Notes under the pieces: model-generated
Databases searched by the model: none
The model's input: only the letters and a program-made list of their open reading frames with translations
What the model was told of the DNA's origin: nothing
NCBI GenBank assembly: GCA_026392355.1
Contig: JAPLCF010000030.1
Location: 522,259-586,258 of the forward strand
Origin: Actinomycetota bacterium
Lineage (GTDB): Bacteria > Actinomycetota > Thermoleophilia > Gaiellales > F1-60-MAGs149
Direction: 5' to 3'
DNA length: 64,000 bases
Shown here: piece after piece, positions 15,182-40,905 of the stretch
How the letters are laid out: each line of letters begins with the position of its first letter
Numbering within the stretch: position 1 is the stretch's first letter
Made by a program: the position numbers and the translations under genes

Positions 15182-16039
15182 TCAGGTTCGGCGCGCCGCC
15201 ACAACCCGGTCAACGCCCGCCAGGTCGCGGTGGCACACGACGTCAACGAATCCCGCAGCCTCGAGCAGGCCTCGCACTATGCCCGCCTGCTCGTCCGAGT
15301 TCTCCAGCACGATCATCCCGCCCGGATTGAGCAAGGCGAGCGCGTCGGCTACGAGCCGGCGGATCAGATCGAGACCGTCGACGCCGGCGTACAGCGCGAG
15401 GTGCGGCTCGTGGCGGACGACACCCTCTTCCGTGCGCGGGTCGCCGTCGGGGATGTAGGGCAGGTTCGCGGCGATCACGTCGAAGGTTCGCCCCACCACC
15501 GCGGCAGCAAGATCCGATTCCAACAGCTCAATCTCGACGCCGATGCGCTCCGCGTTCTCGCGCGCGAGCGCAAGCGCGTCAACGGAGAGGTCTACCGCCG
15601 TGACCGTCACGTCCGGCCGCTCGTGCTTGACCGCGATCGCAATCGCACCCGAGCCCGTGCCGACATCGAGCAGCGCGCCGCCTTTGCCCAGGTTGGCAAG
15701 TGCCACCTCAACCAGCGTCTCGGTCTCGGAGCGCGGCATCAGCGCCCGCGCGTCGGTCTTCAGCACCAGCCGATGAAAGCCCACCTCACCGAGGATGTAC
15801 GCCACCGGCTCAAGGTCGGCGCGGCGTCGCAGGAGCGGCCGAATTGCGTCGAGCTCGGCGGGCGTGACCGGGCGATCGTGATGCAGATACAGCTCGAGCC
15901 GATCGAGGTCGAGCACGCTGCCAATGAGCTTCTCGGCGTCGAGTCGGGCCGTCGGGATCCCCTTGGCGTTCAGGTACGCAGCCGACAGCGCGACGACGTC
16001 CTTGACGTTCTTCATGCCACCGGGCATGGCCTCAGCCAT
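15182..16039 (-). CDS. prmC: release-factor glutamine N5-methyltransferase (PrmC/HemK)
   Basis: SAM motif [14 protein letters not shown] and catalytic motif IAANLPYIP (an NPPY variant), immediately downstream of prfA. Start ambiguous (16039, 16027 or 16015). Confidence 0.85.
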
Positions 16040-17108
16040 CGGCGGAGGCGGCCTCGAGCTGCTGACGGTTCCAGTCGGCCTGGAGCGCGGAACTGAACGG
16101 CTCCAGCGCACCGAGCAGGACCGCGTCCATGTCGTGCGACGTGAACTTGATGCGGTGGTCCGTCACGCGGCTCTGCGGAAAGTTGTAGGTGCGGATCTTC
16201 TCGGAGCGGGCACCCGTGCCGATCTGCGACGTGCGGGTCGCAGCGCGTTCGGCATCGAGCCGCTCGCGTTCGGCCTCGTAGATGCGGGCGCGCAAAATCT
16301 TCATGGCGCGCTCGCGATTCTGCAGCTGCGAGCGCTCGTCCTGGCAGGCGACGACAACGCCAGTCGGCAGGTGCGTAATGCGCACGGCCGAGTCCGTCGT
16401 ATTGACGGACTGTCCGCCTGGACCGGTCGCGCGAAAGACGTCGATCTTGAGGTCCTTCTGATCGATCGTCACCTCGACCTCTTCTGCCTCGGGCAGCACG
16501 GCGACCGTCGCCGTCGACGTGTGGATACGTCCCTGCGTCTCCGTCGCCGGCACGCGCTGAACTCGATGGACGCCCGACTCCCACTTGAATGCGGAATACG
16601 CGCCGTCGCCGGTGATCTCAAACGAGACATCCTTGAGGCCGCCGGAGTCGGATGAATCACTCGTCAGTACCTGATGCTTAAAGCCGAGGCGATCGGCGTA
16701 GCCCGTCAGCATCTTGAAGAGATCGGCCGCGAACAGTGCGGCTTCTTCCCCACCCGTGCCACCGCGGATCTCAATGATCACGTTGCGATCGTCGGCCGGA
16801 TCGCGCTCGAGCATGGCGATGCGCAGCTCTTCCTCCAGCTCGGGCAGCTCGACCCGCGCGGACTCGAGCTCCTCTTGGAGGTAGGCGCGCACCTCGGGGT
16901 CGGACTCGCTCTCTAGGCCCTCCGTGGCATCGGTAACCGTCGCGGTCGCGGTGCGCCAGCGCTTGGCCAGCTCGTTGGCAGCCTGCAGGCGGCGATGCGT
17001 CCGCCCGACCTCGGCGAGGCGCTGATGATCCGCAAGAACAGCGGGGTCGGCGAGCTCCTGCTCGGTCTCCTCGAAGGATCGTTCGATCTGGGCGACGAGG
17101 CGTTCCAT
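16032..17108 (-). CDS. prfA: peptide chain release factor 1
   Basis: From [22 protein letters not shown]...; contains [25 protein letters not shown] (the GGQ motif) and [21 protein letters not shown]. The longer 477-aa ORF N-terminus is Arg/Pro shadow. Confidence 0.95.
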
Positions 17109-17146
17109 ACCTGCAGGGTACGCGGGAGCGCCCGCGCGCCGCGTCG

Positions 17147-18085
17147 TCAGGCCATGACGTCGACGGGAGCGTCGGCACGGCGCTGGCGATTGAACGCCTC
17201 GCGCTCGAGGACGGCGTCGAGCGCGGCGACCGCGACTTCGAGATGCTCGGTGTCGGCCGGGCGGGTCGTCAGACGCTGCAGCAGCAGGCCCGGCCACAGC
17301 ACCGCGTGGATGATCGGGTTGTGGCCGTAGCGGCCCGCCAGGCGGATCACCTCGTACGCGATGCCGGCGATCACGGGCACGAGCAGGATCCGCGACAGGA
17401 TCAGCAGCCAGAGATCCGGACGGCCGACGAAGGCGAACACGACGATCGCGATCACCATCACCCACAGGAGGAAGGCGGTCCCGCAGCGCAGGTGGATGCG
17501 CGAGTGCCGGGCCGCCGCCTCCGCAGTGCGCGGGTCACCCGCCTCGAGTGCGTTGATAGCCATGTGCTCGGCAGCATGAAACTCGAACACGCGGCGCAAG
17601 TCGGGCAGCAACGTCAGAAACAACAGATAGCCGATGAACAGGCTGACGCGGATCACGCCCTCGACGACGACAAAGAGGACGGTGTCGTCGATCGGCAGAA
17701 AGTTCGCCACCACGCTGGGCACGACCTTGAAGATCGCGATACTGAAGGCCACCGCCACCACCAGCGCGATGATGATCTCCTTGCGGCCGAGCTCCTCCTC
17801 CGCCTCACCGTCACCGCGCTCCTCGCCCTCGTGCCCGTGATCACTCGACGACAGGCGCGCCGCCAGCGACAGCGCCTTCATGCCGATCGCGAGCGACTCG
17901 CCGAGCGCGACAACGCCACGCACGACGGGCCAGCGCAAGACGGGCGAGCGCAACGCGACAGAGCGCTGATCCTCCACGACCGTCGTAATGCGGCCATCCG
18001 GACGTCGAACCGCGACGGCCCACGCCGACGGGGTCCGCATCATCACGCCCTCGACAACGGCCTGCCCACCAACGGACTGGCTCAT
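17147..18085 (-). CDS. DUF1385-type membrane protein (YqhQ-like)
   Basis: [19 protein letters not shown]..., [12 protein letters not shown]..., and C-terminal TM segments. The position between rpmE and prfA is typical for this family. Confidence 0.75.
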
Positions 18086-18104
18086 CGCCTGCTCCCGATC
18101 CCGA

Positions 18105-18311
18105 CTAGGACGAGGCCTTGGCGCGGCGCTTGTTGAAGCGCTCCACGCGACCGCCGACGTCAATCAGCTTCTGCGTGCCCGTGTAGAACGGATGGCAGGC
18201 CGAGCAGAGCTCGACGCTGTAGTCGCCCTTCGTCGAGCGCGTCTCGAACGAGTTCCCACAGGAACACGTGATCGTCACGACGGGGTACTCGGGATGCGTA
18301 TCTGCCTTCAT
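18105..18311 (-). CDS. rpmE: 50S ribosomal protein L31
   Basis: [62 protein letters not shown]. Confidence 0.93.
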
Positions 18312-18438
18312 CGCGCGGCACCGTAGCACGACGTTTGCGGCGGCCACGCCGTACCCACCCACGAGGGCGGCACAAGTGTGCCCTTGACTTCTTATCTTCG
18401 TAGTGGTTTGCTCGTCACACCATTAGACGGGAGGGGTC

Positions 18439-19929
18439 ATGGCAAGTCATCCATCCGGTGAGCGATTCACCGTAGAACTCGAGAAGGGCACCAACTGGTG
18501 GGGCGCCTTCGTGATCGGCCTGGCGGGCACGATCCTCGTGATCGGCCTCGCGGGCTATGCCCTGCTGGCACTCGGCGGCGTGGCGATCACGCTGTTCATC
18601 GTGCTCACGCTGGTCGGCGTGTTCCTCTGCTTCTGTCTGGCCGAACTCGCGGCCGCCTTCCCCGACCGCGCCGGCGGGTTGCCGTCGTACGCGTTCGAGA
18701 CCTTCAAGCCCTGGGGTAGTTCAGCGTCAGAGCACATCGGCGGTCTCAGCTCGTGGGCGTACTGGCTCGGCTGGTTCACCGTCGCGCCGATCAACGCCTA
18801 CCTCGCCGCGCTCTACATCACCGACCTGTTCGGAATCCCGCTCGGGTCGACGTACGGACCGATTTCCGACAAGTTTGGGTCGGCCTGGTCGGTCGGCGTG
18901 CTCGTCACCGCCGCAGTCATCCTCGTGGTGATCTTTGTCCCAGGCTGGCTCGGTATCCGGCTCGGCGCGACCTTCGCGACCGTGCTTGGCATCGGTTCGA
19001 TCATCCCACTCGTGTTGATCATCGTGCTCCCGTTCTTCCACCCATCCTCGATCGACTTCGGCAACGTGCAGCTGACGACGCTGCCCGAAGGCGTCACCGG
19101 CTCGTGGCAGCTGATCATCGGCTGGGCGTTCATCTTCACCTGGACCGTCTGGGCGATGGAGGCCGCGGCGTGCTACATCGGTGAGTGTCGCGAGCCCGCT
19201 CGCGACGCCAAGATCGCGATGACGGCGGAGGGCCTGTTCGGCCTGTTCGTCTACATCACCCTGCCGCTGATGCTCCTGGCCGTGCTGGGTACTGCTGGTT
19301 TTGCCGCGCTCGGCTCGGGCGACGCGAACGTCGTGTTCCTCGGCTACGTCGACAAGATCTTCGGCACCAACGAGTTCTGGCGCTGGTTCGTCGGCCTCGC
19401 GCTCGTGGCAGCGCTGCTCCTGTCGGTGCTCAACGCCCTGATCGGCGCGTCGCGCGGTCTCTGGCAGAACTCGGTCGACGGCGTGTTGCCGAAGATCTTC
19501 GCCAAGACCAACAAGCACGGCTCTCCCAGCACCGCGATCATCCTGTCGCTGGTCGCCTCGCTGCTCGTGCTCTTGGTGGGCTCGCCGCTGCAGATCTACG
19601 TGTTCTCCAACATGGGCTACCTGTTCGCCCTGTCGGTCGCCATGATCGGCTTCGGTGTCTTCCGCTACAAGCGGGACGACTTCCCGCGGCCGGTCAAGAT
19701 GCCGAAGATCATGGCGCCCCTCGCGATCCTCTTCGGCGTGGCAGGCCTCCTACTGTGGGCGATCGGCGGCTACTTCTCCGCCGACTACGCAGTCGGCGAG
19801 GGCTACCGCTGGCTCTACTGGGTCGGTCTGATTCTGCTCGCCCTCTACGTACCGCTGCACCTCTGGCGCCGCGTCGAGGACAAGCGCCATGGGCAACCCA
19901 CCCCGCACCACGTGGATCATCCCCACTGA
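18439..19929 (+). CDS. APC-superfamily amino acid/amine permease
   Basis: 496 aa with about 12 TM segments and N-terminal APC-like features (GTNWWGAFVIGLAGTILV..., CLAELAAAFPDRAGGLPSYAFE). Confidence 0.85.
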   Translation: MASHPSGERFTVELEKGTNWWGAFVIGLAGTILVIGLAGYALLALGGVAITLFIVLTLVGVFLCFCLAELAAAFPDRAGGLPSYAFETFKPWGSSASEHIGGLSSWAYWLGWFTVAPINAYLAALYITDLFGIPLGSTYGPISDKFGSAWSVGVLVTAAVILVVIFVPGWLGIRLGATFATVLGIGSIIPLVLIIVLPFFHPSSIDFGNVQLTTLPEGVTGSWQLIIGWAFIFTWTVWAMEAAACYIGECREPARDAKIAMTAEGLFGLFVYITLPLMLLAVLGTAGFAALGSGDANVVFLGYVDKIFGTNEFWRWFVGLALVAALLLSVLNALIGASRGLWQNSVDGVLPKIFAKTNKHGSPSTAIILSLVASLLVLLVGSPLQIYVFSNMGYLFALSVAMIGFGVFRYKRDDFPRPVKMPKIMAPLAILFGVAGLLLWAIGGYFSADYAVGEGYRWLYWVGLILLALYVPLHLWRRVEDKRHGQPTPHHVDHPH

Positions 19930-19943
19930 TGCGCTGACCTCAC

Positions 19944-20450
19944 ATGCCGCTACTCCCACGCCGCCGCAAGCGCAACTGGGACGAGCAACCGGTCGAACCC
20001 TGCGAGGTCATGCTCGCCGGGGACGGTCGGCGGAAGTTCTCGGAGAGGGCGATCGCCAAGGCGGTCGCCCTCTCCCCTTCCGGGCCCGTCACGGTCGTCA
20101 CGATCGCCCGTATTCACGGCACGCAGTTTGGCCTGCCCAATCCGGGCCTGATGCCGACGAAGCAGGAGATGAAGGCCCGGCACGATTGGGTCGGCAAGGG
20201 GGTCGACGCGATCCTGGCGGCCGGCGGCGAGGCCGACGGACAAGTGGCCGTGACACGCAAGACGACCAAAACGCTGGCGCGGATCGCGCGCACGCGCGAG
20301 GTCAAGACGATCGTGATCGACGAGACGCAGTACACCGGCTGGCGGCGGTTCGTCGAGGGCGATGTCGGCACCGAGCTCGCCAAGCGGCTGCGTGCCGATG
20401 GCATCGAGGTGATCGTCATCCCGTACGACCCAAACGACCCCAAGCCGTAG
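19944..20450 (+). CDS. universal-stress-protein-like (adenine-nucleotide alpha-hydrolase fold) protein
   Basis: 168 aa, starting 14 nt after the permease stop. It shows a weak USP-like pattern (VMLAGDGRRKFSERAIAKAVAL...VTVVTIARIHG...TIVIDET...). The functional call is tentative and the start is uncertain. Confidence 0.45.
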   Translation: MPLLPRRRKRNWDEQPVEPCEVMLAGDGRRKFSERAIAKAVALSPSGPVTVVTIARIHGTQFGLPNPGLMPTKQEMKARHDWVGKGVDAILAAGGEADGQVAVTRKTTKTLARIARTREVKTIVIDETQYTGWRRFVEGDVGTELAKRLRADGIEVIVIPYDPNDPKP

Positions 20451-20517
20451 CAATCCGACACTTCCCAACCACAAAAGGTTCGACTAGCATGCCTTTCACC
20501 ACGCGCAACTGGAGGAG

Positions 20518-21885
20518 ATGACCGTGGCACAGCCCAAGAACAAGGAAGAGGCCCGTCGCCGAGCAAAGGCTGACGGCATCGAGTTCTTCTTCGCCCAGTT
20601 CGTCGACATGCACGGCAAGCCGAGCGCCAAGCTCGTCCCCGCCGAGCGCATCGACATGCTGTTCGACGATGGCGCAGGCTTCGCCGGCTTTGCCGCCGGC
20701 CCGATCGGCCAGACGCCCGCCTCGCCGGACATCGCGGCGATTCCGGATCCCGAGTCCTACACCCCCGTGCCGTTCAAGCCCGGTCTCGCGCGCTTCGCCT
20801 GCGACATCACGATCGACGGCGATCCGTGGAACTTCTGCCCGCGCACGATCCTCAAGAACGCCAACGCCCGCGCAGCGAAGATGGGCTACCGCCTGAAGAT
20901 GGGCATGGAGCTCGAGTTCTTCCTGCTCAAGGAGCGCGACGGCAAGATCGTCCTGGCGGACGACCTCGATACGCTCGACCAGCCCTGTTACGACATGAAG
21001 GGCATCACGCGGTCGTACGACTTCATCTCGCAGCTGTCGAAGAACCTCAACGGGCTCGGCTGGGGCAACTACGCCAACGACCACGAGGACGCCAACGGCC
21101 AGTTCGAGCTGAACTTCGAGTACGACGACGCGCTCAAGACGGCCGACAAGGCGATCTTCTTCCGCTACATGGTCCACGCCATGGCGCAGGAGCGCGGTCT
21201 GCTGACGACCTTCATGCCGAAGCCGTTCTCGAACCTGACGGGCAACGGTGGCCACCTCCACATCTCGCTGTGGGATCCGACCGGCAAGAAGAACCTGTTC
21301 GAGGATAAAAAGGATCCGCGCGGCCTCGGCCTGTCCAAGCTCGCGTACCAGTTCCTCGGCGGCATCATCGACAACTCCGAGGGCCTCAGCGCGATCCTCG
21401 CGCCGACGGTCAACTCGTACAAGCGCATCGGCGTCGGCGCACCCACCTCGGGCGCCACGTGGGCCCCTGCTTACGCCACGTACGGCATGAACAACCGCAC
21501 GCAGTCGATCCGCATCCCGGCCCCGGGACGCATCGAGATCCGCTCGACCGACGGTGCAGCCAACCCGTACCTGGCCGCCGCGGCGATCATCGGCTGCGGC
21601 CTCGACGGCGTCGCCAACAAGGCCAATCCGGGCGAGCCGAACCTCGACAACCTGTACGATCTGTCGCCGGCGCAGATCAAGCGCAAGCGCATCAAGACGC
21701 TGCCCGCGAACCTGCTCGACGCCACGCGCGCCGCGCAGAAGAACAAGGCGCTGCGTGATTGGCTCGGCAGCATGGACGGCTGGGACTACCTCGACTACTT
21801 CGTCGAGACGAAGCAGGCCGAGTGGCAGGAGTACCACACGACCGTCAGCGATTGGGAGCTCAAGCGCTACCTCACGCTGTTCTAG
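20518..21885 (+). CDS. glutamine-synthetase-fold gamma-glutamyl ligase (GlnA/GmaS/PuuA-like)
   Basis: 455 aa, with GGAGGAG 6 nt upstream of the ATG. GS catalytic-domain motifs: MGMELEFFL, NDHEDANGQFELNFEY, FMPKPFSNLTGNGGHLHISLW, NSYKRI, NRTQSIRIP, EIRSTDGAANPYL. Confidence 0.9.
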   Translation: MTVAQPKNKEEARRRAKADGIEFFFAQFVDMHGKPSAKLVPAERIDMLFDDGAGFAGFAAGPIGQTPASPDIAAIPDPESYTPVPFKPGLARFACDITIDGDPWNFCPRTILKNANARAAKMGYRLKMGMELEFFLLKERDGKIVLADDLDTLDQPCYDMKGITRSYDFISQLSKNLNGLGWGNYANDHEDANGQFELNFEYDDALKTADKAIFFRYMVHAMAQERGLLTTFMPKPFSNLTGNGGHLHISLWDPTGKKNLFEDKKDPRGLGLSKLAYQFLGGIIDNSEGLSAILAPTVNSYKRIGVGAPTSGATWAPAYATYGMNNRTQSIRIPAPGRIEIRSTDGAANPYLAAAAIIGCGLDGVANKANPGEPNLDNLYDLSPAQIKRKRIKTLPANLLDATRAAQKNKALRDWLGSMDGWDYLDYFVETKQAEWQEYHTTVSDWELKRYLTLF

Positions 21886-21894
21886 GACACAGGG

Positions 21895-21929
21895 GTGACG
21901 GAGATGCACCACGAGTGTATCTCCGTCAC
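21895..21929 (+). terminator. 11-bp stem hairpin after the GS-like gene (weak terminator or attenuator)
   Basis: GTGACGGAGAT-gcaccacgagtgt-ATCTCCGTCAC, beginning 10 nt after the stop. No U-tract follows. Confidence 0.35.
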
Positions 21930-22108
21930 ACCCGCAGTCCCGTTCCCCGAGGAGCATCGGCGCTACGCATGTGCAGCACGACCATATGGTTGTGATCCGT
22001 CATGTGACGGTGCCCCATGCCATCACCCCGCTGGTGCGGTAGCCTTTCTCCCAAGAACAGGTGGATCACCCACCGCCCAGAGGATGTTCCATCGAGGAGG
22101 AGACCGTC

Positions 22109-23479
22109 ATGGCGGTTGCAGTTGAGAGCGCGAAGGCCGGACTTGATCCGATGTTCAACCCGGATTGGTTTCTGACCGACGAGGAGAGGGCGCTGCGCGA
22201 GCAGTTGATCGAGATCTGCGAGAAGGAGATCCGTCCCCGCGCCGCCCAAAACGACCGCGAGCTGATCTTTCCTCGCGAGAGCCTCGAGGCGCTCGGCCCG
22301 TTCCTCGGCCTGACGCTGCCCAAGGAATGGGGCGGCCTCGGCCAGGGTCACGCGATGCTCGTCGCCACGACCGAGACGATTGCGCGCTACGGCTGCGCCT
22401 CCACCGCCATGTGTTACACGATGCACATGGGCGCGGTTGAGTCCCTTCGCCTGACCGCCACCGAGTGGCACACGGAGAACGTCCTCAAGAAGATCGTCTC
22501 CGACAAGCTGATCGGCACCCTTTCGTTCTCCGATCCGGAGACTGGCTCGCACTTCTGGTACCCGATCTCGTCCGGCGCCCGCAAGGTCGAGGGCGGCTAC
22601 GAGGTGCTGAAGAAGGCGTCGTGGACGACGTCCGGCGGCTTCGCCGACTGGTACGTCCTGCAGACGACGTCGCCGGAGTTCAAGGCCTACTCGGACCTGA
22701 CCTGCTGGCTCGTCTTCAACGACGAGGTCGAGTCGGGCCACGCCGAGTGGGACGCCATGGGCCTGCGCGGCAACCAGTCTGGTTCGCTGCTGCTCGACTG
22801 GAAGCTCCTCGGCGAGGAGCGCATGGTCGGCGCGATTGGTGATGGCGCCTGGGCCAACGACGAGGCGGTCGATCCGTTCTTCCTGATCTCCTCCAGCGCC
22901 TGCTGGAGCGGCATCGCGCTTGGTGCGATCGACATCTGCATCCAGCACACGACCCGCAAGGTCCACAAGGACGTCGGCATGCGCGTCTGCGACTACCCGA
23001 CGATTCAGGACTCCGTCGGCGAGGCGATCATCGACACGAACGCCATCCGCTGCATGAACTACTCGATCGCCGCCGCCATGGACAACGTGACGGATAACGG
23101 CCAGCGCACGCTCGAGCAGTCCGAGTACGCCCGCGGCAACTACCTCCACTGGCTCTGGCAGCTCAAGTTCGCCTCGGCCAAGAACTGCGGCCTCGTCGTC
23201 GACGAGATGATGCACTCCGCCGGTGGCACGTCGTACAAGAAGTCGCCGCTCGAGCTGGAGCGCTTCGTCCGCGACGGCAAGGCCGGCTGGGTGATGGGCC
23301 CGACGAACGAGGTCCTGCGCCAGTTCGTCGGCAAGACCGCCCTGCTGGGCATGGAGTCGCTCGACTACTGGAACCAGGTCGTCAACGAGCGCTCGATCAA
23401 GAACGAGACCAAGAAGATGACGCCCGAGCAGAAGAAGGCGCTCGCCGAGGAACTCCTCGCCGAGGCCGCGCAGGGCTAG
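22109..23479 (+). CDS. acyl-CoA-dehydrogenase-fold flavoprotein lacking the canonical catalytic Glu (oxidase/monooxygenase-like)
   Basis: From MAVAVESAKAGLDP (GAGGAGGAG upstream). ACAD-like N-terminal, middle and C-terminal domains are visible (LTLPKEWGGLGQGH..., GTLSFSDPETGSH..., WDAMGLRGNQSGSL...). Where ACADs carry (I/V)YEG(T/S)xE, this protein reads VMGPTNEV. Confidence 0.8.
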   Translation: MAVAVESAKAGLDPMFNPDWFLTDEERALREQLIEICEKEIRPRAAQNDRELIFPRESLEALGPFLGLTLPKEWGGLGQGHAMLVATTETIARYGCASTAMCYTMHMGAVESLRLTATEWHTENVLKKIVSDKLIGTLSFSDPETGSHFWYPISSGARKVEGGYEVLKKASWTTSGGFADWYVLQTTSPEFKAYSDLTCWLVFNDEVESGHAEWDAMGLRGNQSGSLLLDWKLLGEERMVGAIGDGAWANDEAVDPFFLISSSACWSGIALGAIDICIQHTTRKVHKDVGMRVCDYPTIQDSVGEAIIDTNAIRCMNYSIAAAMDNVTDNGQRTLEQSEYARGNYLHWLWQLKFASAKNCGLVVDEMMHSAGGTSYKKSPLELERFVRDGKAGWVMGPTNEVLRQFVGKTALLGMESLDYWNQVVNERSIKNETKKMTPEQKKALAEELLAEAAQG

Positions 23480-23492
23480 TTCGCAACGTCAA

Positions 23493-23538
23493 GGCCCCCT
23501 GGCTGCACCGCATCGCGGTGCAGCCAGGGGGCCTTTTT
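23493..23538 (+). terminator. rho-independent terminator
   Basis: 19-bp perfect stem GGCCCCCTGGCTGCACCGC-atc-GCGGTGCAGCCAGGGGGCC followed by TTTTT. Confidence 0.85.
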
Positions 23539-23554
23539 CGTTGTGGGACCAGAC

Positions 23555-23936
23555 TGACGATGGGAACACCCCGAGGTGGCTCGGTGGGAAACGACCGATT
23601 CACCTCGCGGTGATCCCGTCGCCTGGGTGGATCAACTGCGCCAGCAGTGGCATTGGCCTCCGAGAGATCTCGGAACCAGGCGACGCGATCGCCTCGAGGT
23701 GAATCGGTCCTTTCGGACCGAGCCACCTCGAGGCCTTCGCGTCGTCAAACGCGAACAACGAACAGGCCTTCGAGTCGTCGCCGTGGATCAACCGCGCCAG
23801 CAACGGCATTGGCCTCCGAGAGATCTCGGAACCAGGCGACGCGATGACCTCGAGGTGAATCAGTCTTTTCAGACTGAGCCACCTCGAGGCCCTCGCGTCG
23901 TCCAGCGCGACCAATCGACAGGCCTTCGCGTCGTCG
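23555..23936. repeat. MITE-like palindromic element family 1: one full copy (23555-23747) plus a tandem partial copy
   Basis: The module is GAGGTGGCTCGG..CCGATTCACCTC, then GATCCCGTCGCCTGG, core, CCAGGCGACGCGATC, then CCTCGAGGTGAATCGG..CCGAGCCACCTCGAGG, then ..TTCGCGTCGTC. The right half repeats again at 23770-23903. Related copies lie at 30560-30832 and 43178-43369. Confidence 0.9.
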
Positions 23937-23966
23937 GGCGAGATCCGGGGCCCTAACGTCGAGGCC

Positions 23967-25637
23967 CTAGAACAGTCCGACAACCGTGCCGTCGTCGGCC
24001 AGATCGATCGCGTTCGCAGCAGGCACCGCGCCGAGGCCCGGCATCTGCAGCATGTCGCCGCACAGCGGCACCAGCATGCCGGCACCCGTGTACGAGCGGA
24101 TGTCGCGGATCGGCACCGTGAAGCCGGTCGGGCGGTTACGCAGCGTCGGATCGTGCGACAGCGACAGATGCGACTTCGCCATGCAGATCGGGAGGTGCGA
24201 GATGCCCTCCTTCTCGAAGCGGGCGATCGCAGCCAGCGCGGCGGGCGACAGGTCGACGCCGTCGGCGCCGTACACCGTCTTGGCGATCGTCTCGATCTTC
24301 TGGGCAACCGGATCCGAGTCCTCGTAGAGCATCTTGAAGTCCGACGGCGCCTCAGCAGCGGCACAGACGATCTCGGCGAGCTCGGTGACACCGTCGCCAC
24401 CCGCACCGAAGCCGTTGTGGATGGCAGCACCAAAGGCACCGGCCTCCAGTGCGAGCGTCTTGATCAGCTCGAGCAGCTCGGGCTCATCATCGGGACGCGT
24501 GTTGATCGTGACGACCGGCTGGATGCCGAAGGCGCGCACGTTCTCGATGTGCTTGGCGAGGTTCGCCATGCCCGTCTCGACCTCGGCACGCATCTGCGCC
24601 ATCTCGGCCGTCGACTGCCAGTCGCCGCCGCCGTGGTGGCGCAGCGCGCGCACCGTCGCGACGATCACGACAACGTGCGGCTTGAGCCCACCGACGCGGC
24701 AGACGATGTCCATGAACTTCTCCATGCCAAGATCGGCGGCGAAGCCGGACTCGGTGATCAGGAACTCACCCAGCTTGAGGCCAATGCGGTCCGCGATGAT
24801 GGAGTTGTTGCCGTGGGCGATGTTCGCGAACGGACCGCAGTGCATCAGGCACAGCTGACCCTCAAGCGTCTGCACGATGTTCGGCTTGATCGCGTCGCGC
24901 AGAAGGACGGCCATCGAGCCAGCGGCCTTGACATCCTCGGCGGTAACGGGATCGCCCGCCTTCGTGTAACCGACGGTGATCGCGCCAAGCTTCTTGCGCA
25001 GATCCTTCATGTCGGTGGCCAGCGCCATGATCGCCATGACCTCGGAGGCGGCGGTGATGTCGAAGCCGGACTCCGCGGGAATGCCGTTCTTGGGGCCACC
25101 GAGGCCCGTCACGATGTTGCGGAGCGAGCGGTCGGTCACGTCGATCGCGCGACGCCACGTGACGTTGGCGATCTGCGGGCTGTGCCCGTGGAAGATGTGC
25201 GCATCAACCAGCGCCGACAGGAGGTTGTTCGCGGCGGTGATGGCGTGCACGTCACCGGTGAAGTGGAGGTTGAGGTCCTCCATCGGTACGACCTGGGCGT
25301 AGCCGCCACCGGCTGCGCCGCCCTTCACACCGAAGACAGGGCCGAGCGACGGTTCGCGCAGCGCGAGCATCGCGCGACGGCCGATCTTGCCCATGCCCTG
25401 CGTCAGCGAGACGGAGGTCGTCGTCTTGCCCTCGCCGGCCGGGGTCGGCGTAATTGCAGTGACGTTGACGATCTTCGCGTCCGGGACGTCCTTGAGGCGG
25501 TCGAGAATCGACAGCTCGATCTTGGCCTTGTAGCGGCCGTAGAGCTCGAGCTCATCCGGCAGGATGCCGTACTCGGCTGCAATATCGGCGATCGGCTGGA
25601 GCGTATGCTCCTGGGCGATTTCAAGGCTCGACTTCAT
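23967..25637 (-). CDS. fhs: formate-tetrahydrofolate ligase
   Basis: MKSSLEIAQEHTLQPIADIA..., TAITPTPAGEGKTTTSVSL, REPSLGPVFGVKGGAAGGGYAQV; 556 aa. Confidence 0.95.
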   Translation of the reverse strand: MKSSLEIAQEHTLQPIADIAAEYGILPDELELYGRYKAKIELSILDRLKDVPDAKIVNVTAITPTPAGEGKTTTSVSLTQGMGKIGRRAMLALREPSLGPVFGVKGGAAGGGYAQVVPMEDLNLHFTGDVHAITAANNLLSALVDAHIFHGHSPQIANVTWRRAIDVTDRSLRNIVTGLGGPKNGIPAESGFDITAASEVMAIMALATDMKDLRKKLGAITVGYTKAGDPVTAEDVKAAGSMAVLLRDAIKPNIVQTLEGQLCLMHCGPFANIAHGNNSIIADRIGLKLGEFLITESGFAADLGMEKFMDIVCRVGGLKPHVVVIVATVRALRHHGGGDWQSTAEMAQMRAEVETGMANLAKHIENVRAFGIQPVVTINTRPDDEPELLELIKTLALEAGAFGAAIHNGFGAGGDGVTELAEIVCAAAEAPSDFKMLYEDSDPVAQKIETIAKTVYGADGVDLSPAALAAIARFEKEGISHLPICMAKSHLSLSHDPTLRNRPTGFTVPIRDIRSYTGAGMLVPLCGDMLQMPGLGAVPAANAIDLADDGTVVGLF

Positions 25638-25851: not shown

Positions 25852-26121
25852 GTGAGCCACTTCCACATCAAAACCCCATTTGGCCTCCGCCCCGTCAGCG
25901 AGTTCTCGTACGGCGGCGAAGTGCGTCCCCCACTGGCACCTGATGCCCCCGACGAGGAGGCGATCGACCACCTGTGGCTGCGCGCCAACATCGCCGGGGT
26001 GCAGAAGGAGCGGTGGTTCCACTCCAGCGGCACGCGTCGCTGGTACACGATCGTGCGTGACACGCGCACGAACATCGTCCTGGCGCAGCCGGGCGAGGAG
26101 TACACGGAGGGCTCGGCGTGA
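25852..26121 (+). CDS. sarcosine-oxidase-type delta subunit (MgdB/SoxD-like)
   Basis: 89 aa with SEFSYGGEV...ERWFHSSGTRRWYTIVRDTRTN, matching the SoxD pattern EF.YGGE...ERW.H..GC..W. The stop overlaps the alpha-subunit start. Confidence 0.8.
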   Translation: MSHFHIKTPFGLRPVSEFSYGGEVRPPLAPDAPDEEAIDHLWLRANIAGVQKERWFHSSGTRRWYTIVRDTRTNIVLAQPGEEYTEGSA

Positions 26122-28769
26122 GCATTGAATTCGAAGGGCGCGACGTCGCCATTCAGCCGGGCGACACACTCGCCTCGGCGCTTTATCGGGATGGCGTCCG
26201 CGTCTTCTCCCGCTCGTTCAAGTACCACCGCCCCCGCGGCCTCTACTGCCTGTCGGGCGACTGCCCGAACTGCCTGGTCACGGTCGACGGCGAGGTCAAC
26301 GTCCGCGCGTGCATGTGCGCCGCCAAGGATGGCCAGAAGGTCTCGCGTCAGAACGCGTGGCCGTCGGTCGACCGTGACGCACTCAACGTGATCGACAAGT
26401 TCCATCCGCTGATGCCCGTCGGCTTCTACTACAAGGCCGGCATCAAGCCGAAGTTCGCGTGGCCGATGGCCGAAGGCGTGATCCGCCGCGTGGCTGGCCT
26501 CGGCTTCTCGGACAAGAACGATGCGCCGCAGGACATCGATCGCATCAACCGTCATCCCGACGTGCTCGTGATCGGTGCGGGCGTCGCTGGCCTTTCGGCC
26601 GCGATTGCCGCTGCCGACGCTGGCAAGCGCGTGATGGTCATCGATGAGGGCTCCGAGCCCGGTCTCCGCGTTGCCGCGGGCCCGACGAAGGACGCCATCA
26701 ACGGACTTGCCGCGACGGCTGCGGCGAACGCCAACATCGAGCTGAACCCGGGCACGTCCGCCATCGGCATCTACGAGGGCCCGATGGTTCTCGCCATCAC
26801 CGCCGAGCAGACGCTCCACATCCACCCGACGAACATCGTGATCGCGTCGGGCGGCATGGAGATGCATCGCATCTTCGTAAGCAACGACCTGCCCGGCATC
26901 TTCATGGGCCGCGGTGCCGCTCGCCTCGCGGGCGCCCAAGGCGTCAAGGTCGGCGACACGGCTGTCGTCTGGGCCGAGACCCAGGAGGCAGTCGAGCACG
27001 CGAAGACGCTCGCCGCCTCCGGTACGACGGTAGCTGCCGTCGTGACGGGTCCCGGCGTCGACGCCTCGGGTGTCGGCAATCGCCAGATCGCTGGCGAGAT
27101 CGTCGAGGCCAAGGGCCGCAAGAAGCTGTCCGGCGTCGTCGTCAAGACGTCCGGCGGCTCGACCGAGGAGATCGCCTGCGACATCCTCGCCTGTGGTGCG
27201 GAGATCCAGCAGAACATGCACCTCCCCCGTCTCGCCTACGACCTGCCGTGTGTGCTCGCCGGCGACGCTGCCATCCCTGGCACGACGCTCGACGAGGCCG
27301 CCAAGCAGGGCACCGAGGCGGGTGCTGCTGCGGCAGCCGGTCTGCCCCTGTACGTGAACCCGCCCGCCTCCCAGCCGCGCAAGTGCGGTACCGCTGGCTA
27401 CGTCTGTCTCTGCGAGGACGTGTCGGTCAAGGAGGTCGAGCAGGCGATCGACGAGGGCTTCGAGTCCGCTGAGCTCCTCAAGCGCTACACGACCGTGACG
27501 ATGGGACCGTGCCAGGGGCGCCTCTGCGCCGACCAGCTGCGGGCCATCGCGGAGCGCAAGACGCCGGCCGAGGCTGCACGTGTCTCGGCGCCGACGACCC
27601 TGCGTCCGCCGGTTCGCCCGATCCGCATCGAGCAGGCGGCTGCAGGTGCCCGTCATCACATCGAGCGCCACACCCCGCTCCACCAGAAGCATCTGGAGAT
27701 GGGCGCGTCGACCCTCTGGGCCGGCCCGTGGAAGCGCATCTTCTCGTACGGCGACATGCAGGCCGAGTACGAGGCCGTCCGCCATCGCGTCGGCGTCATC
27801 GACGTCGGCACGCTCGGCAAGTTCCTGCTGGCCGGCCCCGACGTCGTCGAGTTCCTTGAGCGCATCTACCCGATGCGCGTCGCGGACCTCGAGCCCGGCA
27901 AGCTGCGCTACGGCCTGATGCTCGAGGAAGGCGGGGTCATCATCGATGACGGCACCGTCTGCGCCCTCGAGGGTGGTGCGTTCTACTGCACCGTCACCAC
28001 ATCGGGTGCTGAGCGCCTCGAGTCCTGGATGCTCGACTGGCGTGAGGCCTGGGGCCTCGACGTCTTCGTCGTCAACCAGACCGCGTCGCTCGCAGCTGTC
28101 AACGTCGCCGGCCCACACGCCCGCGATCTGCTCGAGAAGCTGTGTGACGATCCGATCGACAAGGAGTCGTTCCCGTACCTGCGGCATCGCCGCATCACGG
28201 TCAACGGCGTCTCCTGTCTGGCCATCCGCCTCGGCTTCGTTGGCGAGCTGGCCTACGAGCTCCACTTCCCCGCCGCCAACGCGGTCGAGATGTGGGACGC
28301 GATTCTCGAGGCAGGCAAGGAGTGGGACATCAAGCCGTTCGGCCTTGACGCCCAGCGCCTTCTCCGCCTTGAGAAGGGTCACATCATCATCTCCCAGGAC
28401 ACCGACTTCGAGACGACCCCGTGGAAGGTCTCGATGGACTGGGCTGTGAAGCTCGACAAGCCCGACTTCGTCGGCAAGGCTGCTCTGATTCGCGCGCAGC
28501 GTCGCACCCCGCGTGAGACGCTCGTGCCATGGCAGATGGAGCCTGGTATGGCAACCCCCGCAGAGGGCTCGATCGTAACGGTCGGCGGCAATCTGAACGG
28601 ACGTGTAACGTCCTCGAAGATGTCGTATGTCCTCGGCCACCCGGTCGGACTCGCGTGGGTAACCACCGAGTTCGCGAAGGCTGGCGGAACCATCTCTATC
28701 GGAGGCGCGCCGGCATCTATCGGTGACCACGCCTTCTACGACCCTGAGGGAGTGAAGCTCCGTGCCTAA
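26118..28769 (+). CDS. sarcosine-oxidase-type alpha subunit (MgdC/SoxA-like) with an N-terminal Cys4 2Fe-2S-type motif
   Basis: 883 aa. N-terminus: GDTLASALYRDGVRVFSRSFKYHRPRGLYCLSGDCPNCLVTVDGEVNVRAC. Rossmann motif VLVIGAGVAGLSAA. The C-terminal half is a GcvT-like folate-binding domain (VGVIDVGTLGKFLLAGPD...GHIIISQDTD...). Confidence 0.9.
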   Translation: MSIEFEGRDVAIQPGDTLASALYRDGVRVFSRSFKYHRPRGLYCLSGDCPNCLVTVDGEVNVRACMCAAKDGQKVSRQNAWPSVDRDALNVIDKFHPLMPVGFYYKAGIKPKFAWPMAEGVIRRVAGLGFSDKNDAPQDIDRINRHPDVLVIGAGVAGLSAAIAAADAGKRVMVIDEGSEPGLRVAAGPTKDAINGLAATAAANANIELNPGTSAIGIYEGPMVLAITAEQTLHIHPTNIVIASGGMEMHRIFVSNDLPGIFMGRGAARLAGAQGVKVGDTAVVWAETQEAVEHAKTLAASGTTVAAVVTGPGVDASGVGNRQIAGEIVEAKGRKKLSGVVVKTSGGSTEEIACDILACGAEIQQNMHLPRLAYDLPCVLAGDAAIPGTTLDEAAKQGTEAGAAAAAGLPLYVNPPASQPRKCGTAGYVCLCEDVSVKEVEQAIDEGFESAELLKRYTTVTMGPCQGRLCADQLRAIAERKTPAEAARVSAPTTLRPPVRPIRIEQAAAGARHHIERHTPLHQKHLEMGASTLWAGPWKRIFSYGDMQAEYEAVRHRVGVIDVGTLGKFLLAGPDVVEFLERIYPMRVADLEPGKLRYGLMLEEGGVIIDDGTVCALEGGAFYCTVTTSGAERLESWMLDWREAWGLDVFVVNQTASLAAVNVAGPHARDLLEKLCDDPIDKESFPYLRHRRITVNGVSCLAIRLGFVGELAYELHFPAANAVEMWDAILEAGKEWDIKPFGLDAQRLLRLEKGHIIISQDTDFETTPWKVSMDWAVKLDKPDFVGKAALIRAQRRTPRETLVPWQMEPGMATPAEGSIVTVGGNLNGRVTSSKMSYVLGHPVGLAWVTTEFAKAGGTISIGGAPASIGDHAFYDPEGVKLRA

Positions 28770-29283
28770 TCTTTTTGAAGTCAAAGGCGCAGCGAAGATC
28801 CGCTGCTTCGGCAAGGAAGCCGTTCTGGACGGGCTCAAGCAGCCTGCTGGAACGCTGATCGGCCGCATTACCCCCGACGAGGTCATCTTCGTCGGCGAGC
28901 CCGGCACTGCTGCCGCGCTCGTCGAGGACCTCTCGGGCCAGCTCGCGAGCGAGGGCACTGCCGCGCTCGTCGTCGATCACACCGACGGCTGGTCGTTCTT
29001 CACCATCGAGGGTGAGGGCGTCGAGGAGGTGTTCGCCCGCGAGGCGAACTGGAAGCTCCCCGTCTCGAACGGCGAGCCGGTCTTCACGGTCGGCAAGGTC
29101 TGCCATGTCGCTGGCAAGGTGTTCGTCCGGCCCAACCGGATCGACATCATGACCGGCGGCGAGGTCATCGAGCACGTGCACCACTCGCTGCTCCATGCCG
29201 GCCATCACGTCAACATGCATGAGGTCGCCGCTCCCGCGCAGAATGCGCTCGGCGTCGGCACAGAAGGGGTGGCAGTCTCGTGA
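28762..29283 (+). CDS. sarcosine-oxidase-type gamma subunit (MgdD/SoxG-like)
   Basis: 173 aa. Its GTG start overlaps the alpha stop and its stop overlaps the beta start (GTGA). The call rests on position, size and a weak similarity pattern. Confidence 0.65.
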   Translation: MPNLFEVKGAAKIRCFGKEAVLDGLKQPAGTLIGRITPDEVIFVGEPGTAAALVEDLSGQLASEGTAALVVDHTDGWSFFTIEGEGVEEVFAREANWKLPVSNGEPVFTVGKVCHVAGKVFVRPNRIDIMTGGEVIEHVHHSLLHAGHHVNMHEVAAPAQNALGVGTEGVAVS

Positions 29284-30500
29284 GCGGTCTCCTGCGAGGA
29301 CGCACGTTCTTCAAGAAGTACCCGATGAAGAAGTCGTACGACGTCGTCATCATTGGTGGCGGTGCGCACGGCCTCGGCACGGCGTACTACCTGGTCAAGA
29401 ACCACGGCATCAAGGCCGAGAACATCGCGGTCCTTGAGATGAACTACATCGGTGCCGGCGGTTCGGGTCGCAACACGACCATCGTCCGCTCGAACTACCG
29501 CACGCCCGAGGGCATTCGGTTCTACGAGCGCTCGATGGAGCTGTGGCGTGGCCTGTCCCAGGACCTCGACTTCAACATGATGATGTCGAACCTCGGTCAC
29601 TTCACGCTGGCCCACACCGACTCGTCGGTGCGCGTGCAGCGCGAGCGCGCCGAGACCAACAAGGTCCTCGGTGTCGACTCTCGGCTGATCTTCCGCGATG
29701 AGATCGCGGAGCTCTGCCCCGAGCTGAACATGTCGATGGACGTGCCGTACCCGATCGAGGCCGCGCTGTACCACCCGCCGGGCTCGGTGCTGCGTCACGA
29801 CGCCGTCGTCTGGGGCTACGGCTCCCAGTTCTCGATGCGCGGCGGTCACATCCACCAGGGTGTGAAGGTCACGGCGATCCGCAAGGACTCGGCCGGCAAG
29901 TGCATCGGTGTCGACACGAGCCAGGGCCCGATCGACGCCGGTGTCGTGATGAGCGCCGTCGCTGGTTGGACGACGCAGGTCACCGACCTCGCCGGTGTCC
30001 GCACCCCGATCACGAACCATCCGCTCCAAGCGTTCGTGACGGAGCCGGTCAAGCCGCTCCTCCACAAGATCATCGTGTCGGCTTCGCTGCACACGTACAT
30101 CTCGCAGACGGACCGCGGTGAGGTTCTGATCGGCTCGGAGATCGAGCCGTACACCACGTACAACATGCGCTCGACGAACACGTTCCTCGAGCACTCCACG
30201 GCGAATGCCCTGGACGTTGTGCCGCTGCTGGCGCGCCTGAAGATTCAGCGCCAGTGGACGGGTTACTGCGACATGACCCCGGACTACAGCCCGATCATGG
30301 GCAAGACCGAGGTCGATAACTTCCTGATCGACGCCGGTTGGGGTACGTGGGGCTTCAAGGCCTCCGCGGTGTGCGGCGAGACGATGGCAGAGCTGATTGC
30401 CACGAATCGCACGCCGGACCTGATCGAGCCCTTCCGCCTCTCCCGGTTCGCCGAGGAGATGCTGGTGCCCGAGAAGGCTGCTGCTTCCGTCTCCCACTAG
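29280..30500 (+). CDS. sarcosine-oxidase-type beta subunit (MgdA/SoxB-like), FAD-dependent
   Basis: KKSYDVVIIGGGAHGLGTAYYL, GSGRNTTIVRSNYRTPEG, LRHDAVVWGY, CGWGTWGFKA-like DAGWGTWGFKAS, C-terminal ...EKAAASVSH. Confidence 0.9.
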   Translation: MSGLLRGRTFFKKYPMKKSYDVVIIGGGAHGLGTAYYLVKNHGIKAENIAVLEMNYIGAGGSGRNTTIVRSNYRTPEGIRFYERSMELWRGLSQDLDFNMMMSNLGHFTLAHTDSSVRVQRERAETNKVLGVDSRLIFRDEIAELCPELNMSMDVPYPIEAALYHPPGSVLRHDAVVWGYGSQFSMRGGHIHQGVKVTAIRKDSAGKCIGVDTSQGPIDAGVVMSAVAGWTTQVTDLAGVRTPITNHPLQAFVTEPVKPLLHKIIVSASLHTYISQTDRGEVLIGSEIEPYTTYNMRSTNTFLEHSTANALDVVPLLARLKIQRQWTGYCDMTPDYSPIMGKTEVDNFLIDAGWGTWGFKASAVCGETMAELIATNRTPDLIEPFRLSRFAEEMLVPEKAAASVSH

Positions 30501-33237: not shown

Positions 33238-33699
33238 CTAGTGGCCCTGCGGCGACTCCCAGCCCGGGAGGACCGACGGCTTCCAATCGGTGCCGACGAT
33301 ACGCGAGTTCTTGACCCACGGCCCGAGCTCGGGCTGCGGGAACTTCGCGTGCGCCTCCTTCAGCTTGATGCCGTAGGAGTTGCCGCTCTGGAGGTGCTTA
33401 AGCAGCACCTTGCGCGCGACCTCGTTCTCCTGACCCTTCGGAATCTCGAAGTAGATCTTGATGAACGAGTTCGAGTACCGATCGAAGACGGCGGGAACGC
33501 CGTCCTCCTGGAGCAGCTCAATATCCTCGAGCCAGTTGATGTCCTGGCCCGGCGTCGACTCCATCAGATCGACATCAGCGCTGGCGTTGATGTCCTCCTG
33601 GTAGTCGAAGCGCTTGCCGGCCAGGTACTCGGCGGAGATGCCGATGGTCAGCTCGGGATTGTGTCGCTCAGTAGCGATGTTGGTCGTTGCTTCAGACAT
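33238..33699 (-). CDS. hypothetical acidic protein (153 aa), last gene of the mgs-like operon
   Basis: MSEATTNIATERHNPELTIGISAEYLAGKRFDYQEDINASADVDLMES... The ATG lies 8 nt after the upstream stop with GGAGTCAG between them. Third codon positions are GC-rich. I recognise no family. Confidence 0.6.
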   Translation of the reverse strand: MSEATTNIATERHNPELTIGISAEYLAGKRFDYQEDINASADVDLMESTPGQDINWLEDIELLQEDGVPAVFDRYSNSFIKIYFEIPKGQENEVARKVLLKHLQSGNSYGIKLKEAHAKFPQPELGPWVKNSRIVGTDWKPSVLPGWESPQGH

Positions 33700-33707
33700 G
33701 CTGACTC

Positions 33708-35153: not shown

Positions 35154-35170
35154 CAGTAATCCCCCTTTTC

Positions 35171-36879: not shown

Positions 36880-36933
36880 GGTGATCTCTGCCCTCGTTGC
36901 GTCGTGGTTTTAGTGTTATTACTCGACTCCGCC

Positions 36934-40548: not shown

Positions 40549-40905
40549 GTGCCCGTTATGGAAGCGCTGCCGCTCGAGTGCGACACCCCGCTCGTGGCGC
40601 GCGCTATGGGTAATGCCGAGGCCGAGGCTCTGGCTCGCACACTCAAGGCCGTGGCAGACGCCAATCGCGTCAAGATTCTGCACCGGCTGATCTCGGCCTC
40701 GCCGCAGGGCGTCTGTGTCTGCGACCTAACCGAGCCACTCGGGATCGCCCAGCCCAGCGTCAGCTACCACCTGCGCATCTTGCGGCAGGCTGGCCTGATC
40801 GACCGGCGGCAAGACGGGAGCTTTGCCTACTTCTCGGTGCGCGACGAGGCGCTGCGCCGTCTCGCGACGCTGCTCGACCCCACCACGCAGGAGGCATTGG
40901 CATGA
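40549..40905 (+). CDS. arsR: ArsR/SmtB-family metalloregulator
   Basis: [53 protein letters not shown], a wHTH with a CVC-type metalloid site. The stop overlaps the next start (ATGA). Confidence 0.85.

Follow-up and report, generated by a model that had tools for sequence, protein, structure and literature searches.

A methylated-amine module of a Gaiellales actinobacterium and its acyl-CoA dehydrogenase-fold protein, a candidate alternative dimethylamine monooxygenase

What does a flavoprotein with the acyl-CoA dehydrogenase (ACAD) fold do in an amine gene cluster when the catalytic base of acyl-CoA dehydrogenases is missing from it? The question is raised by a 64,000-nt stretch of genome assembly GCA_026392355.1 of an Actinomycetota bacterium of the order Gaiellales (contig JAPLCF010000030.1, positions 522,259 to 586,258; hereafter, the window), where genes for a permease, a USP-like protein, a ligase of the glutamine synthetase (GS) fold, and an ACAD-fold protein, here called ACADL, follow one another on one strand. 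The original prediction saw in them a new gamma-glutamylation-dependent amine catabolic module. Such a module was not confirmed, since the ligase is an ordinary gamma-glutamylmethylamide synthetase (GmaS) and its pairing with the ACAD-fold protein is confined to one lineage; what is truly anomalous is an ACAD-fold protein that lacks the catalytic base and is encoded among amine genes. The region is best explained as a module through which a Gaiellales-type actinobacterium takes up methylated amines and brings them into its metabolism, and the ACADL family is a strong candidate for an alternative dimethylamine (DMA), or trimethylamine (TMA), monooxygenase. The module comprises the following features:

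18439-19929, + strand: APC-superfamily permease, 496 aa (Pfam PF13520 AA_permease_2, E 5e-43)
19944-20450, + strand: USP-like (adenine-nucleotide alpha-hydrolase-like) protein, orf168, 168 aa (marginal Pfam Usp match)
20518-21885, + strand: GmaS (glutamate--methylamine ligase), 455 aa (TIGR03105; Gln-synt_C, E 2e-94)
22109-23479, + strand: ACADL, ACAD-fold flavoprotein, 456 aa (Pfam Acyl-CoA_dh_N, _M, and _1/_2 (C) domains)
23492-23534, + strand: intrinsic terminator closing the gene set (20-bp stem with 16 GC pairs, 3-nt loop, then TTTTTCGTT, the T tract)

The G+C content of the window is ~66%, and the four + strand open reading frames (ORFs) within 18.4-23.5 kb have a third-position G+C (GC3) of 0.89-0.93, the bias of real genes. 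The gaps between them are 14, 67, and 223 nt. The ORFs, their GC3, and the stem-loop with its T tract bear out the predicted set of four co-oriented genes with a terminator. The ACADL frame is open from 22061, and its real start is the ATG at 22109, because GAGGAGGAG lies just 5' of this codon and the resulting N-terminus is conserved in homologues. The only match in an Rfam scan of positions 17900-24000 was that of the terminator hairpin to a miRNA model (E 0.005), and it was dismissed.

The predicted folds of the permease, the ligase, and ACADL proved correct by Pfam, AlphaFold2, and Foldseek. The AlphaFold2 model of ACADL had a pLDDT of 87.4 and a pTM of 0.88, and the three-domain ACAD fold, with its N-terminal alpha, middle beta, and C-terminal alpha domains, was confirmed by the Pfam N, M, and C matches and by Foldseek, with TM scores of 0.84-0.89 (normalized by target length) to the true ACADs among its matches. 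The top Foldseek matches in PDB were a mixture of true ACADs and ACAD-fold monooxygenases (5z8t, a 'flavin-containing monooxygenase', DszC, and TdsC), and the chemistry of ACADL is therefore not decided by the fold alone. The catalytic base was mapped by aligning a profile of 59 ACADL family members to solved ACADs from PDB. This alignment placed RDGKAGWVMGPTNEV of ACADL against RDAKITQIYEGTNQI, so that Gly397 occupies the position of MCAD Glu376 and Pro398 replaces the following Gly. Gly397 is invariant in 58 homologues. Other invariant residues of the family include His106, Ser141, His148, and Asn400. The prediction that the catalytic Glu is missing was right, and only its choice of Pro as the aligned residue was one position off. 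At the alternative base position, which we take to be the residue before the conserved helix-G Arg (MCAD Thr255, IVD Glu254), the profile alignment placed Phe257 of ACADL; this position carries F, N, K, W, or Y, and never a carboxylate, in all 18 homologues shown in full. ACADL has neither Glu nor Asp at the MCAD Glu376 or the IVD Glu254 position, where a true ACAD has its base. It scored below all NCBIfam ACAD cut-offs (the best, Rv1679/FadE16, gave 187 bits vs 600) and has a conserved family-specific C-terminal extension of ~45 aa (residues ~415-456). We infer that ACADL is not an acyl-CoA dehydrogenase.

It was pointed out earlier, correctly, that ACAD-fold proteins lacking the catalytic base usually act as oxygenases on substrates without CoA. 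Such are the Group D two-component flavin monooxygenases (DszC/TdsC, HsaA, C2-HpaH, SfnB, isobutylamine N-hydroxylase, and KijD3/DnmZ), which share with ACADL the three-domain fold and the absence of the catalytic Glu. Enzymes of this group use O2 and free reduced flavin, with a C4a-hydroperoxyflavin as intermediate. Amine-oxidizing members of this group exist, and a flavin reductase of the HpaC/HsaB type is encoded beside ACADL in most genomes. ACADL differs from these enzymes in its low scores on the SfnB, HsaA, and DszC NCBIfam models (25-59 bits), in the invariant C-terminal extension and a closer relation to true ACADs, in the Tdm/GmaS context of its gene, and in its proposed substrate, a C1-C3 methylated amine.

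The gene neighborhoods indicate what this substrate could be. A homology search at E <= 1e-20 returned 1420 ACADL protein clusters, all annotated only as 'acyl-CoA dehydrogenase family' or 'AidB-like', and a scan of one genome per species found an ACADL relative in at least 561 species. Between proteins from Actinomycetota, Chloroflexota, Alphaproteobacteria, and a cyanobacterium, identity is ~60%. Neighborhoods were counted in the best 80 loci of these at least 561 species (individual loci are numbered with the prefix L), with window proteins, Tdm, flavin reductase, and other proteins mapped by tblastn. By identity to the window ACADL, the loci fall into tiers of >= 85% (5 loci), 65-84% (35 loci of Gaiellales), and < 65% (40 loci from Solirubrobacterales, Thermoleophilia, Streptosporangiaceae, Dongiaceae, and Hyphomicrobiales).

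In four of the five closest loci, GmaS is encoded directly upstream of ACADL on the same strand, and three of these four also have the permease and orf168; locus L045 (78% identity) keeps only the GmaS-ACADL pair. Same-strand adjacency of the two genes occurs in 5/80 species loci, all of one Gaiellales lineage, and the ligase and ACAD-fold genes cannot be regarded as the conserved unit. In the 65-84% tier, a GmaS-like ligase lies within 10 kb of ACADL in 31/35 loci and mgs genes in 27/35, while Tdm was found within this distance in none (0/35). The usual layout here has a GAF-PucR regulator between the gmaS cluster and a divergent ACADL, with an APC permease downstream. The picture in the < 65% tier is different: Tdm follows ACADL immediately 3' on the same strand in 32/40 loci, typically 1-20 nt away, and lies within 10 kb in 36/40, and a GS-like gene was found within 10 kb in 11/40. 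The identity of Tdm as trimethylamine N-oxide demethylase was established by its score on NF053776 (1232 bits vs a cut-off of 1100). A PF01613 flavin reductase is encoded within 10 kb of ACADL in 31 of the 40 loci of this tier and in 12 of the 35 Gaiellales loci. This reductase belongs to the HpaC/HsaB type, which is known to work with oxygenases of the ACAD fold. The gene order is reductase-ACADL-Tdm in Carbonactinospora thermoautotrophica, with the reductase-ACADL pair at L002 9353-11407; in the Solirubrobacterales locus L092, ACADL is followed after a 20-nt gap by Tdm and flavin reductase genes overlapping by 4 nt, all on one strand and beside soxDAGB. Two alphaproteobacterial loci, L048 and L056, encode a canonical trimethylamine monooxygenase (Tmm) of the flavin-containing monooxygenase (FMO) type (NF058570, 850 bits) directly beside ACADL, Tdm, and the reductase.

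Altogether, where the flanks were adequate, methylated-amine genes were present in 32/32 loci of the Tdm tier and 29/30 loci of the Gaiellales tier. It is very likely that ACADL is a methylated-amine catabolic enzyme. The conserved neighbors of ACADL are Tdm and the flavin reductase, and many loci have no GS-like gene within 10 kb, which speaks against a gamma-glutamyl amide as substrate.

The ligase of the window points in the same direction. It scored 597 bits on TIGR03105 (cut-off 469.6), with an additional weak Gln-synt_N match, and aligned end to end with the solved structures of glutamate--methylamine ligase 9qur (E 2e-128) and Rhodovulum GmaS 7cql (E 3e-122). The mechanism of the latter, RhGmaS, involves Asp177, Glu186, and Arg312, with Ala48' at the position of GS Asp50' and Trp300 replacing the flap Glu (PMC7948447). 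All these hallmarks are retained in the window ligase as D188, E197, R327, A56, and W315. Its score on the PuuA model was 262 bits vs a cut-off of 650. By its TIGR03105 score, structure matches, and hallmark residues, the ligase is a canonical GmaS and does not act on a new amine; the suggestion of a second amine falls with this. The rest of the N-methylglutamate pathway is encoded downstream of the module:

23967-25637, - strand: ftfL (NF010030, 758 bits)
25852-30500, + strand: soxD/A/G/B-like N-methylglutamate dehydrogenase genes (soxA and soxB family matches; SoxD-like 89-aa ORF in cluster 19)
33708-38331, - strand: mgsC, mgsB, mgsA, and a second GmaS-like ligase, GS2 (NCBIfam matches)
38537-40399, + strand: GAF-PucR (PucR-HTH) regulator, divergent from GS2-mgsABC (748 bits against the hidden Markov model (HMM) of the related-locus regulator)

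The neighboring N-methylglutamate gene set noticed earlier was confirmed by homology. Judged in this way, the pathway (gmaS, mgsABC, soxDAGB-like genes, and ftfL) is complete in the window, with its other genes 2-15 kb from gmaS, and the expectation that the module feeds the adjacent C1/methylamine metabolism was right, the GmaS product being the one that enters the N-methylglutamate pathway. The window agrees with the known gmaS-mgsABC-mgdABCD systems in that its ligase has every GmaS sequence feature tested. The difference is that gmaS is detached from mgsABC, which has its own divergent paralogue GS2, and is grouped instead with the permease, the USP-like gene, and ACADL. GS2 (36934-38331, - strand), adjoining the mgsA/B/C-like genes, is 34% identical to the window GmaS, scored 336 bits on TIGR03105, below the cut-off, and keeps the catalytic residues D177, E186, R312, and W300 (RhGmaS numbering). 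Orthologues of the GmaS type stand directly beside mgsABC in ~23 related loci. Related Gaiellales genomes have either a GmaS-type or a GS2-type ligase beside mgsABC, with two correspondingly different mgsABC versions, which points to two parallel types of N-methylglutamate cluster. The HMM that identified the GAF-PucR gene represents a regulator which other Gaiellales loci encode between ACADL and the gmaS cluster; with orthologues so placed in ~20 of them (e.g., L020 8017-10263), it is likely the pathway regulator.

The gene clusters encode uptake, Tdm (converting trimethylamine N-oxide (TMAO) to DMA and formaldehyde), GmaS, MgsABC, the Sox-like dehydrogenase, and folate C1 enzymes. Two steps are left unaccounted for, TMA to TMAO and DMA to monomethylamine (MMA). 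Among aerobic DMA monooxygenases, DmmDABC is, to our knowledge, the only one that is genetically defined. In the gene neighborhoods inspected, no multi-subunit gene set resembling Dmm was seen. The known enzyme consists of DmmABC and the GcvT-domain protein DmmD, and dmmDABC is missing from many methylated-amine degraders that carry other pathway genes, which has been termed a metabolic bottleneck (PMC5520151). The step from DMA to MMA is favored for ACADL because DMA connects the two kinds of context, arising from Tdm in one tier and preceding the GmaS substrate in the other, because Tmm already fills the TMA step in L048 and L056, and because of the lack of Dmm-like genes in the inspected loci. 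We therefore propose, with a probability of roughly 0.45, that DMA is converted to MMA by a two-component flavin monooxygenase in which ACADL is the oxygenase and takes the place of DmmDABC without homology to it. Stated more broadly, the odds are somewhat better than even that ACADL represents an unrecognized widespread ACAD-fold family for the 'missing' DMA-to-MMA step (or, failing that, for TMA oxidation) in those soil Actinomycetota, Chloroflexota, Alphaproteobacteria, and cyanobacteria that have Tdm and/or GmaS and no DmmDABC-like genes in the loci inspected.

Under this proposal, the permease would bring in a small methylated amine. Reduced flavin would come from a separate NAD(P)H:flavin reductase, whose gene adjoins ACADL in most other genomes and has no counterpart within this window. 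With O2, ACADL would hydroxylate a methyl group of DMA, and the carbinolamine would collapse to MMA and formaldehyde. ACADL could thus provide the substrate of the GmaS encoded just upstream, which by homology ligates MMA to glutamate with ATP and passes the product to the N-methylglutamate pathway (mgsABC, the soxDAGB-like dehydrogenase, and ftfL). In the lineages with Tdm encoded just downstream, ACADL would use up the DMA that Tdm releases. The USP-like protein probably modulates the permease, and transcription of ACADL probably starts from a separate promoter within the 223-nt spacer. The proposed reaction is that of DmmDABC of Methylocella, Ruegeria, and Paracoccus, and it has the same place on the way from TMA/TMAO to MMA, next to tdm, gmaS, and mgs genes. 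The protein families appear unrelated, being set apart by the published description of the Dmm subunits (PMC5520151) and not by alignment.

Several observations weigh against this assignment. The substrate of ACADL was deduced from gene context only, and the proteobacterial loci L001, L086, and L090 show no methylamine context. ACADL is nearer to true ACADs (3pfd, 164 bits) than to ACAD-fold monooxygenases (5z8t, 130 bits; KijD3 and DnmZ chains, 70-77 bits) and, by eye, keeps ACAD-like FAD motifs, so that an oxidase or dehydrogenase mechanism with tightly bound FAD is possible. Searches with tblastn and related-locus HMMs found no PF01613 reductase, Tdm, or stand-alone GCV_T in the 64-kb window. 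The adjacency of ACADL and Tdm resembles the classical tmm-tdm pairing and would fit a TMA N-oxygenase as well. Finally, the DMA step might just as well be carried out by a conserved DAO-family oxidoreductase, encoded in 25/80 loci.

The main rival explanation follows from that adjacency. ACADL and the flavin reductase might form a two-component TMA N-oxygenase that converts TMA to TMAO, replaces the FMO-type Tmm without being homologous to it, and feeds the downstream Tdm. The immediate succession of ACADL and Tdm in the 32 distant loci mirrors the tmm-tdm pairing, which is the classical arrangement in Methylocella and marine clusters. ACAD-fold enzymes that oxygenate amine nitrogen are known, with KijD3 and DnmZ among the PDB matches, and no FMO-type Tmm was found in the actinobacterial loci. 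We nevertheless consider this explanation unlikely. Tdm is missing within 10 kb in the entire Gaiellales tier despite the clustering of the rest of the methylamine pathway there, L048 and L056 already have a canonical Tmm beside ACADL, and the window ACADL follows GmaS, which acts two pathway steps farther down. Tmm itself resembles ACADL as a flavin- and O2-dependent enzyme encoded next to tdm, but it has another fold and is a single-component NADPH enzyme. ACADL did not match the Tmm model NF058570, and a search of the window with the L048 Tmm found nothing.

A somewhat less probable explanation is that ACADL is a self-contained FAD oxidase or dehydrogenase that oxidatively demethylates DMA (or a different methylated amine) and, similar to nitroalkane oxidase, passes electrons to O2 or another acceptor in place of using free reduced flavin. 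Its closeness to true ACADs and, partly by eye, the retained flavin-binding motifs would agree with this, as would the absence of a reductase gene from the window. In most Tdm-tier loci, however, the reductase is co-operonic with or adjacent to ACADL, and no other enzyme there needs a reductase. As had been noted, the electron transfer flavoprotein (ETF) genes etfAB are indeed located ~20 kb from the module, at 43369-45161, which would suit a dehydrogenase; ETF genes are neighbors of ACADL in only 1/89 loci, and for this reason ETF, considered as the electron acceptor, was rejected as a conserved partner of ACADL.

Closer to the original idea, ACADL could oxidize N-methylglutamate or the gamma-glutamyl-amide product of the neighboring ligase (gamma-glutamylmethylamide, for instance, yielding glutamine and formaldehyde), which would make a new gamma-glutamylation-dependent route. 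This would be in line with the same-strand adjacency of ligase and ACADL in the window and 5 related loci and with the GmaS-like gene near ACADL in 31 of the 35 Gaiellales loci. We regard this as improbable: the ligase is an ordinary GmaS for whose product a full mgsABC/sox-type set is available, and such a substrate is disfavored because no GS-like gene lies within 10 kb in 29/40 Tdm-tier loci or in the cyanobacterial locus, where the partner is Tdm. The Puu and Ipu systems (PuuA/PuuB, IpuC) likewise have, in catabolic clusters that include a permease, a GS-fold ligase together with an oxidizing flavoenzyme or an oxygenase, but the PuuA score of the window ligase sets it apart, and nothing indicates that ACADL acts on a gamma-glutamyl amide. 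Lastly, a conventional acyl-CoA or acyl-carrier dehydrogenase unrelated to amines and placed here by coincidence, as the source annotations of acyl-CoA dehydrogenase family and the few proteobacterial loci without amine context might suggest, is very hard to reconcile with the lack of a carboxylate at either base position across the family, the methylated-amine genes in nearly all loci with adequate flanks, and scores below every NCBIfam ACAD cut-off.

The best NCBIfam match of the permease was the Methylocella TMAO permease TmoP (NF053774), with 163 bits vs the equivalog cut-off of 690, and its membership is established at the level of the APC superfamily only (PF13520). APC permeases with an equally weak best match to NF053774 flank ACADL in 38/75 more distant loci, and the permease probably takes up a small methylated amine. 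The label 'USP-like' given earlier to orf168 holds only marginally: the Pfam Usp family (PF00582, gathering cut-off 24) gave 17.1 bits for the window copy and 24.9 bits for the L006 orthologue. No Pfam family was found for orf168 at E <= 1e-3, nor any PDB sequence or NCBIfam match. Profile-profile comparison with a USP cluster (hhalign) was weak, E 0.07, and hmmsearch with HMMs of the permease-associated USP clusters of related loci found nothing. The gene follows the permease in L006, L008, and L010 as well, and USP-family proteins recur next to APC permeases in other loci of these clusters; by this analogy, it is plausible that orf168 modulates or regulates the permease. A pair of small genes stands beside APC permeases in ~25 loci (e.g., L020 15470-16518 and L051 18263-19090), encoding a ~135-aa protein with a Zn-ribbon and a transmembrane part (no Pfam family) and a ~170-aa USP-family protein. 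This pair and the 'c32' protein are absent from the window by tblastn and HMMs built from related loci.

The gap before ACADL contains elements of possible regulatory significance:

21892-21933, + strand: hairpin with an 18-bp stem directly after the gmaS stop codon (predicted fold; no T tract)
21997-22046, + strand: conserved spacer blocks (alignment of five related spacers)

The prediction of a structured spacer was borne out: its 223 nt (21886-22108) fold to -103.8 kcal/mol, with z = -5.8 vs shuffled sequences. The hairpin lies in a ~57-nt insertion present only in the window and L010 and missing from L006, L008, and L009; the L010 insertion has a different sequence and, by eye, is also hairpin-like. 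It is possible that the modeled hairpin acts as a partial terminator or an RNA-stabilizing element. The conserved part contains the inverted repeat CCGTCA-TG-TGACGG at 21997-22010 and the invariant TGCGGTAGCCTT at 22035-22046, which includes the -10-like TAGCCT, 63 nt before the ACADL ATG; this conserved motif was found only in close relatives. The Rfam scan revealed no RNA family or riboswitch in the spacer, and a sigma-70 promoter scan gave no sites. We infer that the conserved blocks are a candidate promoter/operator of ACADL itself. Since the spacer holds both the hairpin and conserved blocks with the invariant TGCGGTAGCCTT, ACADL may be transcribed from a promoter of its own, in part independently of gmaS.

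Upstream, the module adjoins a housekeeping block on the - strand (rpmE, a DUF1385 gene, prfA, and prmC; 15182-18362), with glyA and a wecA/mraY-family gene farther away; the DUF1385 gene is upstream also in the relatives L006, L008, and L045. A conserved ~150-aa protein without a Pfam family is encoded directly downstream of mgsC in 12 loci (window 33238-33930, - strand; e.g., L016 2877-3332), its cluster HMM giving 273 bits on the window copy. Positions 40549-43170 (+ strand) hold genes for arsenate resistance that have no relation to the amine gene set and comprise an ArsR-family regulator, the ArsJ-associated GAPDH, and the organoarsenical efflux permease ArsJ, all above NCBIfam cut-offs.

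Other loci of the ACADL family revealed additional conserved or unusual gene arrangements. The DAO-family FAD oxidoreductase (~440 aa, weak soxB/ThiO-like matches), an IclR regulator, and a flavin reductase form a conserved unit in the 25 loci mentioned (e.g., L002 6857-9877 and L051 13777-16633), followed by NuoF-like and NuoG-N-terminal-like genes in Carbonactinospora and L076. This unit is a candidate for a further oxidation step of methylated amines. The oxidoreductase was absent from the window, where only Sox subunits cross-matched (tblastn and related-locus HMMs). In the Chloroflexota locus L004 (5579-11428), an operon starts with a permease and a second ACAD-fold gene (408 aa, a paralogue with 34% identity to ACADL) and continues with PNPOx-like, stand-alone GCV_T, and ACADL genes; a separate DUF1989 gene is located upstream, which suggests a split Tdm and two ACAD-fold oxygenases. 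The cyanobacterial contig L087/L088 (10001-13716) has an isolated ACADL and a shortened Tdm (607 aa), then a gene for a 156-aa unknown protein; they are surrounded by housekeeping genes, psbM, and other photosynthesis-related genes, with no GmaS or mgs within 10 kb; the same protein was present in 73 data blocks. In alphaproteobacterial ACADL/Tdm loci, the flavin reductase is followed by a ~190-aa family without Pfam or NCBIfam matches (L048 18107-18841; L089 14479-15075), which directly follows ACADL in Zavarzinia (L001 11556-12137). A TauD-family Fe/2-oxoglutarate dioxygenase is encoded between ACADL and Tdm in the alphaproteobacterial locus L091 (5038-6096), and in L064, L086, and L091, ACADL is divergent from genes for ABC transporters of the LivK/AmiC type. 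The cluster 40 gene upstream of ACADL in several Solirubrobacterales loci was rejected as a partner: by eye it resembles a RecQ-type helicase, and it did not match the GAF-PucR profile.

Methylated amines (TMA, TMAO, DMA, and MMA) serve as major sources of carbon and nitrogen and give rise to climate-active aerosols. No publication on the ACADL family was found in the literature searched on ACAD, flavin reductase, and methylated-amine topics. Encoded beside Tdm or GmaS in hundreds of species, ACADL is a testable candidate for an alternative DMA route. If the proposed function is true, it would close a recognized gap in the methylated-amine pathway, provide a new marker gene for methylated-amine turnover in soils, and extend ACAD-fold oxygenase chemistry to very small aliphatic amines, and the blanket 'acyl-CoA dehydrogenase / AidB-like' annotation of > 1000 database entries would be corrected.

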